This document shows, piece after piece, positions 19,818 to 27,290 of a DNA stretch of 40,611 nt. The notes under the pieces are model-generated. The model had not been told where the DNA came from and searched no databases. It saw nothing but the letters and a program-made list of their open reading frames with translations. Numbering within the stretch: the stretch's first letter is position 1; every line of letters starts with the position of its first letter. A program made the translations under genes and the position numbers. The stretch is taken from NCBI GenBank assembly GCA_946648015.1, contig CAMPCZ010000002.1, positions 1 through 40,611 of the forward strand, given 5' to 3'. This DNA is from an uncultured Clostridia bacterium. Lineage in GTDB: Bacteria > Bacillota > Clostridia > Christensenellales > CAG-1252.

Positions 19818-22800
19818 ATGACGAAAAAAGTAGTAGCACTATGTTTGGCATTTTTGATGCTGTTTTGCGTAGCGTGCACCGCGGCCACCCAAGCCGAGGT
19901 ATCTCCCACCGCCGGCGAAGCGGTTGGCGAATCTCTGGTGAAAAAGGGCGACTTGTTGTTGTTTAACAGTGGATTGGAGATGACGCAAGACCAAGTTTTG
20001 TCGCGCATTCGCGCCGACAAAATCATTCAAAACGGAGGCTATGAGGACAACGACGAGGTCATCGTGTTGTTGACGCTGTCGGGCGACGCCTTGATAGACA
20101 CCTATCAAAGCTATGCCGCTCGCTTCGGCTCGGTGTCGGCGTATGCCGCCTCCGACTTGGGCAAGCGTCAGGCCGAAACCATCGACGACAGGCAGAATAA
20201 CCTTATTTATACACTCGCGCGCGAGGGATTGATCGAATCGGTGGAGCATACCTACAACACCATTCTCAATGCGGTGGCGGTCAAGGCCAAATACCGCAAC
20301 TTGGTCGCTTTGCAAAACCACGCCGAAGTGGCGGAATTGGTGCTGTGCGACACCTACAATTTGCCCCAAACCGCCGAGGATCAGGCCGTGGTCAACTTGG
20401 TGGACGTGTACGAGACGGGTATTTTCGATTCGTCTACCGTATCCTACACGGGCAAAGGCACCTCGGTAGCCGTGCTTGACTCCGGCTTCGATTGCTCGCA
20501 CTCGGTGTTTGCGCGTCAACCCGACGTGGCCACCGACCGTTTGGCGCTCAACCGCGACAAATTGCGCGAATTGTTGCCCCAAACCAATGCCAAACAGTTT
20601 TCGCCCGAGTTGAGCTTGTACGACGTATTCGTCAGCAACAAGATACCCTACGTCTACGACTATGCCGACAAGGACGCCAACGTCAACCCCTACGATAGCG
20701 AACACGGCACCCACGTCAGCGGCATCATCGGTGGCTCGGACGAGGTGATAACGGGCGTAGCGGTGGACACCCAGTTGGTGTTGATGAAAGTGTTCAGAGA
20801 TTATGACGAGGGCGCCGAAACCGACGACATTTTGGCTGCGCTCGAGGACGCCGTGTTGTTGGGCGTGGACGCCATCAATATGAGCCTCGGCTCGTCGTGC
20901 GGCTTTGTGCGCGAGCAGGATGAGGACGCCATCAACCGCGTGTACGACAAGATAAACGAGAGCGGCGTCAGTCTGATTTGCGCCGCCAGCAACAGTTATA
21001 GCGCCGCCTTTGGCGGTGAAAACGGCAACACCAACAAGGTGACCAACCCCGACTCGGGCACGGTCGGCTCGCCCTCTACCTACAAGGCGGCCTTGTCCGT
21101 GGCCAGCATCAGCGGCGTCAAGAGCAAATACCTTGTGGTCAACGGCGAGGACGTCATCTTCTTCCTCGAATCCAACGCCATCAACGGCTTGCCCAATGAT
21201 TTCTACAAAGAATTGGGCATTACCGAGGGCGTGGGGCGCACGTACGAATACGTTACCATTCCGGGCGTGGGTCTGCGCGTCAACTACACCGGTCTCGACG
21301 TCAACGGCAAGATCGTGTTGGTGCGTCGCGGCGACACCACCTTTGAAGAAAAGGCCGCGGTGGCCAAGTCGATGGGCGCGGCGGCTTGCATCATCTACAA
21401 CAACGTAGAGGGCGACATCAATATGTCGATGGGCAAATCCGACCATATCCCCACCGTGTCCATATCCAAGGAGAACGGCACCAAAATGGCGGCCAAGGCT
21501 TCGGGCACCATCGAGTTGGCCTACACCCAACAGGCCGGCCCCTTCATGAACGACTTTTCGAGTTGGGGCCCCACGCCCGATCTCTCGCTCAAACCCGAGA
21601 TCACGGCGCACGGCGGCACCATCAAGTCGGCTGTCCCCGGCTATTCGCTGGACGAGGATGGCAACAAGATCTACCGCTACGACGAGTTGTCGGGCACCTC
21701 TATGGCGTGTCCCAATATGTGCGGTATCGTGGTGTTGGTGCGCCAATACCTCAAGGAAAAATTCCCCGACAAGAGCGACGTGGAAATCAAAAATTTAACC
21801 AATCAACTGTTGATGTCCACCGCCACCATCGCCCTCAACGAGGAGGGCAATCCCTATTCGCCGCGCAAGCAAGGCGCCGGCTTGGCCAGCCTCTACAAGG
21901 CGGTCAACACCAAGGCCGTTTTGACGGTGAAAGGGCTGGATCGCACCAAGCTGGAGTTGGGTGATGACCCCGACCGCACGGGTGTGTATACCATGACTTT
22001 CGTGGTCAACAACTTCGCGGCGCAATCCGTTGCCTACGACTTGTCCTTGGTGGGTATGACCGAGTCGGTGTCCACCAGCGATAAGGACTACGTGGCCGAA
22101 AAAGCGCGTATGCTCTCGGGCGACATTGCCGTAAGCATAGACGGCGCGGGTTCCTACGACGCGGGCGTACTTTCGGTAGACGCGGCGGGTTCGGCAGAAG
22201 TAACGGTGGTCTACACGTTGTCGGCCGACGACAAGGCGTATATAGAGCAAAGTTTCCCCTATGGTATGTACGTAGAGGGCTACGTTACCCTGTCCGCCAA
22301 GGCCGATGAGGACGTGGACCTCAACGTGCCCTTCTTGGCATTCTACGGCGATTGGTGCGAGGCGCCCATCTTCGACAAGACCTACTACGAGGTGGAGACC
22401 GAGGCGCACAACGCCGCCATTGACCCCGAGGACAAGATCAAGGCCGACTACTACGCCACCACTCCCTACGGCGTGTATTACTACAACTATATGATACCTT
22501 TGGGCACCTATCTCTACACGGTGGACGAGTCGGCGTACGACCCCATCCCCGCAGTGGAGGAGCACATTGCGGTGTCCAATATTTTGGGTACGCTCAACGG
22601 CATTGCCGCGGTGTATGCGGGGCTTTTGCGCAACGCCAAGACCATGAGCTACACCATCACCGACAAATTGTCGGGCGAATTGGTGTGGGAGCACGTGGAC
22701 TACAACGGACGCAAGGCCTTCTCCAACGGCGGCACACCCATTCCCTACTACGACTATTTCCGCTTCTATACCTCGGGCGAAAAGGGCGACTACGGCTATA

Positions 22801-27290: not shown

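Follow-up and report, generated by a model that had tools for sequence, protein, structure and literature searches.

The closest described counterparts of the system treated here are the lactocepins with their oligopeptide importer Opp, the C5a peptidases ScpA and ScpB together with SpyCEP, and, for its repeat part, the proteins with BspA-type leucine-rich repeats (LRRs). In the PrtP/Opp paradigm, the lactocepin PrtP removes its own propeptide autocatalytically, as is the case for cell-envelope proteases (CEPs) in general, and possesses a helical H domain (PMC7783315). Our analysis concerns a stretch of 40,611 nt from an uncultured Clostridia bacterium of the order Christensenellales (GTDB lineage CAG-1252; assembly GCA_946648015.1, contig CAMPCZ010000002.1, positions 1 to 40,611), which is referred to below as the window. 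It encodes a surface protease of 2490 aa, in which a subtilase head is fused to a long LRR array, within a cluster of 12 genes that also contains an Opp importer. We propose, with a probability of roughly 0.6, that the protein is a CEP of the lactocepin/C5a-peptidase/SpyCEP lineage that was rebuilt for membrane anchoring within an oligopeptide-uptake operon. It would be a nutritional enzyme, held by a C-terminal transmembrane (TM) helix on an LRR stalk, and would supply peptides to the co-encoded importer.

According to Pfam and AlphaFold2 (AF2), the domain order of the window protein is S8/PA/Fn3/Big_2/LRR_5/helical/TM (Table 1), which in the manner of a stalk has the TM segment at the membrane and the head at the far end. 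The AF2 model of the N-terminal half (residues 21-1220; mean pLDDT 64, used for topology only) consists of a propeptide-like domain, a low-confidence linker, the catalytic domain with PA, and a series of beta-sandwiches; that of the C-terminal half (residues 1291-2490; mean pLDDT 87) runs from Big_2 through a long solenoid and a cap to a helical bundle entering the TM segment. The catalytic residues follow the Asp-His-Ser order of the S8 family with an oxyanion-hole Asn, and the match to PF00082 (Peptidase_S8) lies above the gathering cutoff of 21.8 bits. In an alignment of 30 full-length relatives, D221, H296, S628, the probable oxyanion residue Asn392 and also Cys20 are all invariant; the catalytic D, H, N and S positions match their counterparts in SpyCEP, and the domain aligns to both SpyCEP and C5a peptidase. 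The PA insert is placed between Asn392 and Ser628, as in CEPs, and is followed by an fn3_5 domain (36.1 bits against a cutoff of 27.6) that was absent from the list of the first-pass annotation. A PA domain inside the catalytic domain with fn3_5 behind it is the arrangement that defines the CEP/C5a-peptidase head, and judging from sequence and modelled fold, residues 1 to ~1150 are a complete module of this kind. The majority-fraction conservation in the 30-sequence alignment is highest in this part, with 0.78-0.80 for the S8 core and PA and 0.80 for residues 846-1150. It amounts to 0.70-0.72 for Big_2, 0.64 for the LRR array, 0.72 for the post-LRR cap, 0.54 for the helical bundle and 0.29 for the TM segment, where only the composition is kept.

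What ties the protease to peptide uptake is its genomic context, which the first-pass annotation had missed. The protease is gene 8 of 12 genes that lie tightly spaced on the same strand; from the ATPase genes to the last lipoprotein gene, the gaps range from an overlap to 32 nt. Genes 2 to 6 comprise a family-5 substrate-binding protein (SBP), two permeases and two oligo_HPY ATPases, i.e. the complete set by which an importer of the Opp/Dpp type is defined. The OppA-like protein of gene 2 matches SBP_bac_5 in two parts, residues 123-204 and 525-803, indicating that ~320 aa are inserted in between. A typical OppA has ~540 aa, compared with 914 aa in this protein; OppA-like homologs in related loci have 877-897 aa, and the gene 2 product scores 61 bits against the NCBIfam equivalog cutoff of 650 for Opp4A. 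The start of gene 7 overlaps the oppF stop codon (ATGA). This small gene is detectable in 65 loci (E<1e-3), and the gene calls of an independent assembly include it; its 76-aa product has no family match. For the four lipoproteins encoded downstream of the protease, searches of Pfam, NCBIfam and PDB sequences likewise gave nothing except one Big_3 domain, and those of 774 aa and 871 aa share a weak similarity over 57 residues (E 0.002). No convincing internal terminator was found within the cluster. Scans for promoters and terminators gave counts no higher than those in shuffled controls, and a promoter-like site (10/12) at 10662-10690, 5' of the first cluster gene, is weak evidence. A separate observation concerns positions 19021-19261, towards the 3' end of the second ATPase gene: contigs of three metagenome runs lack 186 or 239 nt there, which suggests that the charged C-terminal tail of the ATPase varies in length between strains.

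The linkage of protease and importer was surveyed by tblastn in 83 loci, 53 of which are informative, having 8.5 kb or more of flanking DNA on either side. In 52 of these 53 loci an SBP and a permease are encoded on the strand of the protease, with the Opp genes upstream in 42 loci and downstream in 10. The loci with downstream Opp genes belong to more distant relatives (39-43% identity), including the cultured Pumilibacter intestinalis. A linkage that outlasts a change in gene order argues for functional coupling. Two homologs at 55-58% identity sit in the same cluster as in the window, and only in the closer group is the protease found together with the three large lipoproteins encoded downstream. 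Among the distant relatives (39-43%), we observed an inverted order of protease, ~400-aa gene, SBP, permeases and ATPases, with the downstream lipoproteins absent (loci L053, L060-L064, L067, L070, L073, L074, L076, L078 and L081-L083). Some loci of distant relatives contain other very large lipoproteins upstream, for example of 1796 aa in L061 and of 1609 and 1675 aa in L079.

The LRR array is predicted with high confidence. LRR_5 (PF13306) matches the window protein in 8 Pfam stretches with 395.6 bits (4e-120), and motif spacing reveals ~30 recognizable units of 22-23 residues each between positions ~1400 and 2135. AF2 models the solenoid at ~1430-2240 with pLDDT above 90, and according to Foldseek and phmmer it resembles the BspA-type structures 4fs7, 4gt6, 4h09, PcpA and TpLRR. 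Tandem PF13306 units and a solenoid fold are together what characterizes BspA-type LRRs. In the 30-sequence alignment the repeats keep their structural positions (F 0.99, A 0.84, G 0.83, C 0.83); no strongly conserved ligand face was found there, the exposed positions being only moderately conserved (majority fraction 0.39-0.54), which is compatible with a binding arm as well as with a stalk. The LRR half as a whole evolves faster than the head, with 46-54% identity versus 60-65%. A recent expansion or collapse of the LRR repeats was rejected, as the protease gene contains no tandem or long direct DNA repeats. The first-pass annotation had regarded the array as a capture arm for substrates or host proteins. 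The LRR array may bind substrates or partners; a role as a stalk is at least as likely, because the LRR arm is the sole long spacer between membrane and head.

Both termini carry signals for membrane attachment. According to a criterion of a Kyte-Doolittle 19-residue mean above 1.6, the protein has only two strongly hydrophobic segments, the N-terminal signal and residues 2461-2490. The N-terminus may be lipidated: measured against the lipobox consensus [LVI][ASTVI][GAS]C, positions -1 and -2 of C-V-A-C20 match and position -3 is atypical. The window protein alone has substituted Cys at -3; the box reads F-A-V-A-C in a relative of 82% identity and LAAC, LTSC or VAC elsewhere in the family. Inspection by eye gave a lipobox in ~64 of 72 full-length relatives, while ~8 of 72 have a plain signal peptide without the lipobox Cys and the same architecture. 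The beta-alpha-beta-beta-alpha-beta fold modelled at ~76-176 is of the kind found in subtilase propeptides, and the following linker (177-210) is of low AF2 confidence. At the other end, the helical bundle is membrane-proximal in the AF2 model, its last helix continuing into the TM segment. A C-terminal hydrophobic run followed by K/R was detected in 24 of 30 relatives by a strict regular expression and in more by eye; among the full-length relatives, ~67 of 72 have a C-terminal TM segment by eye. An LPXTG-like motif, the mark of sortase-anchored CEPs, is present in none of the 30 relatives within the last 120 residues. From the sequences, the C-terminal TM helix is the constant anchor of the family, and the lipidated N-terminal propeptide is probably removed on maturation, judging from the AF2 topology and from homology to CEPs. 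A TM anchor needs neither peptidoglycan nor a sortase, which would be in keeping with carriers labelled as wall-less lineages; membrane instead of sortase anchoring would fit a family common to Christensenellales and to metagenome-assembled genomes (MAGs) of low GC content labelled as Mollicutes, Anaeroplasmataceae or Bacilli. In a few relatives (L015, L028, L066, L080 and protein P0244) the sequence stops immediately ahead of where the C-terminal TM helix would be, or lacks this helix; secretion of the variant, a frameshift or an error of assembly could each account for this.

The domains and both terminal anchoring signals that had been read from the letters alone hold up in these comparisons and are conserved across the family. 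This applies to the S8 triad with a PA insert, to the two Big_2 domains and BspA-type LRRs, to the N-terminal lipoprotein-type signal with its atypical Cys at -3 (relatives having canonical boxes), to the propeptide-like segment, and to the helical region with a terminal hydrophobic segment and no sorting motif. The architecture had, however, been considered unusual, and an assembly chimera at the S8/LRR junction near 23.4-23.9 kb had been named as a possible objection; the architecture is not rare, and the chimera is refuted. Over 120 proteins in databases, with lengths of 2425-2597 aa, are 52-59% identical to the window protein at 96-100% coverage and contain the same Pfam set, and a pattern scan with one genome per species revealed a relative in the genomes of at least 580 species. 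A 99%-identical copy with the same neighbors is located on an independent 113-kb ENA contig. Logan contigs of three independent runs, from bovine and other gut metagenomes, span the junction (X1, 22127-23740; X3, 23370-24376; X2, 23483-24159). The chance that an assembly error has fused a subtilase gene and an LRR gene is therefore practically nil, given the many full-length relatives, the breadth of carrier genomes, the independent contigs crossing the junction and the lack of DNA repeats; nothing in favor of such an error was found. Among the cluster representatives of a library built at the 50% identity level, ~25 with lengths of 2250-2690 aa share an offset of ~700 residues at the Fn3/Big_2/LRR junction; such a constant offset across ~25 clusters points to one origin of the fusion. 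The architecture is also kept in members at 33-41% identity, again including P. intestinalis.

The carriers are labelled as Christensenellaceae/Christensenellales, Candidatus Gallimonas, Limihabitans or Fimimonas, and Pumilibacter, and further as 'Bacilli', 'Mollicutes', 'Anaeroplasmataceae' and 'Acholeplasmatales' MAGs; these labels are given as deposited and may differ from the GTDB taxonomy. The GC content of the locus ranges from 28% to 58% at ~54% protein identity. All sources are gut metagenomes, namely from ruminants, humans, chickens, rabbits and mice. Pumilibacteraceae (GTDB f__CAG-552, Christensenellales) have been cultured and show a minimal repertoire of carbohydrate-active enzymes and a poor use of carbohydrates, which fits a peptide-based diet. 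The first-pass annotation recognized no described protein with an S8/LRR fusion, and full-text literature searches agree, in that they revealed no description of a fusion of S8-CEP and LRR_5 or of the 12-gene cluster; the one paper in which both Pfam names occur deals with separate proteins. The relatives are named only 'leucine-rich repeat protein' or 'hypothetical protein' in databases. With respect to the question whether the fusion is a common and already characterized family, only the former is the case: the protease family is widespread among mostly uncultured gut bacteria, yet uncharacterized.

Based on these data, the proposed nutritional CEP may operate as follows. The protease would be exported by Sec and lipidated at Cys20; the propeptide-like domain (~76-176) would chaperone folding and then be removed autocatalytically as in PrtP and ScpA, which would leave the C-terminal TM helix as the sole tether of the mature enzyme. 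A stalk made up of helical bundle, LRR solenoid (~15 nm or more) and Ig/Fn3 domains would keep the protease head at a distance of tens of nanometres from the membrane; in addition, protein substrates or partner lipoproteins may be bound on the surface of the LRRs. There, the head would degrade extracellular proteins of dietary, host or microbial origin to oligopeptides, which the 914-aa OppA-like lipoprotein would capture and OppBCDF import. This feeding role is proposed because of the PrtP/Opp paradigm (PMC7783315).

Several observations weigh against the proposal. A subgroup of the closer group, loci L041, L049, L051 and L072, contains no Opp genes in the sequenced flanks; of its members, L072 alone is flanked by 8.5 kb or more on either side, and the subgroup retains the three large downstream lipoproteins. 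Pfam and NCBIfam detect no PrtM/PrsA-like maturase in the cluster. The propeptide assignment comes solely from the fold of the AF2 model with mean pLDDT 64, and Pfam Inhibitor_I9 gives no match even at E<=1. No RNA runs containing the protease gene were found. In addition, ScpA and SpyCEP, the closest solved relatives, are immune-evasion enzymes of narrow specificity and not nutritional ones, LRR arrays are typical of adhesins, and Opp systems of Firmicutes can also import signalling peptides. As regards a different transporter at L072, this candidate was rejected: the genes upstream belong to an unrelated energy-coupling factor (ECF) transporter module and TruA.

A rival explanation is an adhesin-protease, whose LRR arm would bind a ligand on the host, in mucus or on a neighboring cell, whose head would cut a narrow range of substrates such as immune effectors, in the way of ScpA and SpyCEP, and for which the Opp linkage would be secondary. 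In its favor are C5a peptidase and SpyCEP as nearest solved structures, BspA, LrrG/HupY, PcpA and TpLRR as LRR_5 proteins that are adhesins or receptors, an LRR half that diverges faster than the head, and the origin of the family from gut metagenomes only. We nevertheless consider it unlikely, given that Opp genes adjoin the protease in 52 of the 53 informative loci, with two different gene orders, and given the failure to find a strongly conserved LRR surface; moreover, ruminants, humans, chickens, rabbits and mice share the family at similar identity, which argues against a single host-specific target. A different topology was put forward by the first-pass annotation, namely a loop anchored at both ends. 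In this case the lipid would be retained, the head would lie at the membrane beside the OppA-like lipoprotein, and the LRR array would loop outward. Both anchoring signals are conserved (Cys20 is invariant in the 30 relatives, and lipobox and C-terminal TM helix are present in ~64 of 72 and in nearly all relatives, respectively), the neighboring surface proteins are all lipoproteins, and the window includes an Lgt-like gene. The topology itself is weakened, since in ~8 of 72 relatives a plain signal peptide precedes an unchanged architecture, a propeptide-like domain and a low-confidence linker are situated between the lipid site and the catalytic domain, and CEP propeptides are removed autocatalytically; we therefore regard a permanent loop as rather improbable. 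Finally, the uptake of signalling peptides by Firmicutes Opp importers and the several unannotated exported proteins of the cluster might indicate that the enzyme matures signalling peptides or the co-encoded lipoproteins, the processed signal being taken up again through Opp as in quorum sensing of the RNPP type. No regulator or small precursor-peptide gene was recognized in the cluster, however, an enzyme of 2490 aa, ~1300 of them in the stalk, is oversized for such a task, and the distant subgroup retains the protease and Opp, but not the downstream lipoproteins. This makes the signalling role very improbable.

A wider reading starts from the same nutritional CEP and can be offered only tentatively, as a possibility that we doubt more than we believe. 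It is to be taken as one joint claim: the protease might be the catalytic core of a conserved protein-foraging surface machine of 12 genes in largely uncultured Firmicutes of the gut, in which the LRR array docks the OppA-like lipoprotein, the 76-aa protein and the 774-, 871- and 1605-aa lipoproteins, so that capture, cleavage and import take place in one complex. Such a machine might be a Gram-positive, membrane-tethered counterpart, for proteins, of the Sus-like systems of Bacteroidota, and its gene cluster might have been transferred between Christensenellales and low-GC, Mollicutes-like lineages.

Table 1. Positions in the window of the protease gene, its encoded domains and the other genes of the cluster.
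Feature	Position	Strand	Residues or length	Remarks
Protease gene (gene 8)	19818..27290	+	2490 aa	surface protease; ATG start, stop codon included
Lipoprotein-type signal	19818..19877	+	1-20	lipobox F-C-V-A-C20; Cys20 invariant, hydrophobic peak
Propeptide-like alpha/beta domain	20043..20345	+	~76-176	AF2 beta-alpha-beta-beta-alpha-beta, pLDDT 83-90
S8 catalytic domain	20451..21881	+	212-688	Pfam Peptidase_S8, 1e-38, 133.6 bits
Catalytic codon Asp	20478-20480	+	D221	
Catalytic codon His	20703-20705	+	H296	
Catalytic codon Asn	20991-20993	+	N392	
Catalytic codon Ser	21699-21701	+	S628	
PA insert	21282..21485	+	489-556	Pfam PA 62.4 bits; Foldseek PA-domain matches
Fn3-like 'A-domain' region	21987..23267	+	fn3_5 724-840, beta domains to ~1150	
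Two Big_2 Ig-like domains	23295..23933	+	~1160-1240 and ~1290-1372	variable linker; Pfam, AF2
BspA-type LRR_5 solenoid	24000..26537	+	~1395-2240	~30 or more units of 22-23 residues
Post-LRR cap and helical bundle	26538..27212	+	cap 2241-2316, helices 2317-2473	AF2, pLDDT ~77-90
C-terminal TM helix and tail	27213..27287	+	2466-2485, tail KMLGI	hydrophobic run, basic tail
Gene 1	10689..11894	+	~390-400 aa	weak List_Bact_rpt/Flg_new match; always 5' of binding-protein gene
Gene 2, OppA-like substrate-binding lipoprotein	11891..14635	+	914 aa	SBP_bac_5
Genes 3-4, two Opp-type permeases	14681..17248	+		BPD_transp_1, OppC_N (Pfam)
Genes 5-6, two Opp-type ATPases	17251..19579	+		ABC_tran and oligo_HPY (Pfam)
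Gene 7	19576..19808	+	76 aa	C-terminal TM helix, basic N-terminus
Gene 9, unannotated lipoprotein	27302-27877	+	191 aa	lipobox
Gene 10, unannotated lipoprotein	27896-30220	+	774 aa	lipobox
Gene 11, unannotated lipoprotein	30252-32867	+	871 aa	lipobox
Gene 12, unannotated lipoprotein	32888-37705	+	1605 aa	lipobox; Big_3

The rest of the window consists of chromosomal housekeeping genes, such as those of the threonine pathway, GMP synthase and an Lgt-like gene. On the minus strand at 6260-8527, an open reading frame (ORF) of 755 aa joins threonine synthase domains (Thr_synth_N, PALP) and GHMP-kinase domains of the homoserine-kinase-like type; it looks like a ThrC-ThrB fusion inside a block of thr, asd, hom and aspartokinase genes. 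A further lipoprotein gene with the signal ...VGLVAC starts at 38035 and runs off the window end at 40611. Its product contains at least 5 tandem repeats of ~95 residues with conserved cysteines and the motif FDSFVWGDDYTAQAK...TTPATC..GVRTYTATY; an antisense ORF of 839 aa in the same region is a shadow ORF. The GC content of positions 1-3000 is 44-48%, versus 55-60% elsewhere in the window; the Lgt-like gene (821-1609; partial match, 52 bits) and a gene of the sulfotransferase family (1673-2782) are located there.

If the nutritional reading is true, hundreds of poorly known gut species, among them Christensenellales such as Pumilibacteraceae and the low-GC MAGs labelled as Mollicutes or Bacilli, would obtain amino acids from extracellular protein by means of one recognizable cluster. 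The cluster would then serve as a genomic marker for a proteolytic, peptide-dependent lifestyle in gut and rumen, and would provide a rationale for media to culture its carriers. A cultured carrier, P. intestinalis CLA-AA-M10, makes these hypotheses testable. The fusion itself will hardly surprise protease specialists; more notable are the 12-gene cluster, the unannotated lipoproteins and the taxonomic breadth. The cluster also draws attention to its oversized OppA and to four families of co-conserved lipoproteins.

Compared with known systems, the LRR part has the same 22-23-residue repeat and solenoid as BspA, LrrA, HupY/LrrG, PcpA, TpLRR, 4fs7, 4gt6 and 4h09. These are, however, adhesins or receptors that lack a catalytic part, and they usually contain fewer than 20 repeats compared with ~30 here, and the match to HupY/LrrG (NF047961) reaches 117.7 bits against an equivalog cutoff of 1250. 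Regarding the head, the best NCBIfam match is the SGO_0316/SGO_0317 family (NF040553; residues 162-860, 8.8e-72, 242.4 bits); the window protein misses the cutoff of 1400 bits, and the LPXTG motif of that family is absent here. ScpA/ScpB and SpyCEP are matched by Foldseek over 1044-1143 columns (E ~1e-40, ~22% identity) across protease, PA and Fn3, in the case of ScpA along its full chain, and by phmmer with 4e-64 to 5e-51, the catalytic D/H/N/S being aligned. They differ in that they are LPXTG-anchored immune-evasion enzymes of pathogens, with 1000-1650 aa and no LRR arm.

The likeness is broadest to the lactocepins PrtP, PrtB, PrtH and PrtS together with Opp. Signal and long propeptide (putative here), S8 domain with PA insert, Fn3-like A domain, long spacer and a helical, H-like domain near the anchor are common to both, and the proposed role is alike, namely to provide oligopeptides for an Opp ABC importer. 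Unlike in the lactocepins, no PrtM-like maturase is encoded nearby, and the protease gene is situated inside the opp operon, with a 914-aa OppA and extra lipoproteins. In place of the B domain there are two Big_2 domains and ~30 BspA-type LRR units, and in place of the W/LPXTG anchor a C-terminal TM helix together with a lipoprotein-type signal. A stalk of LRRs and a TM anchor instead of B, W and LPXTG modules would constitute a new CEP architecture, in which the spacer role that the B, H and W domains have in lactocepin falls chiefly to the LRR array.

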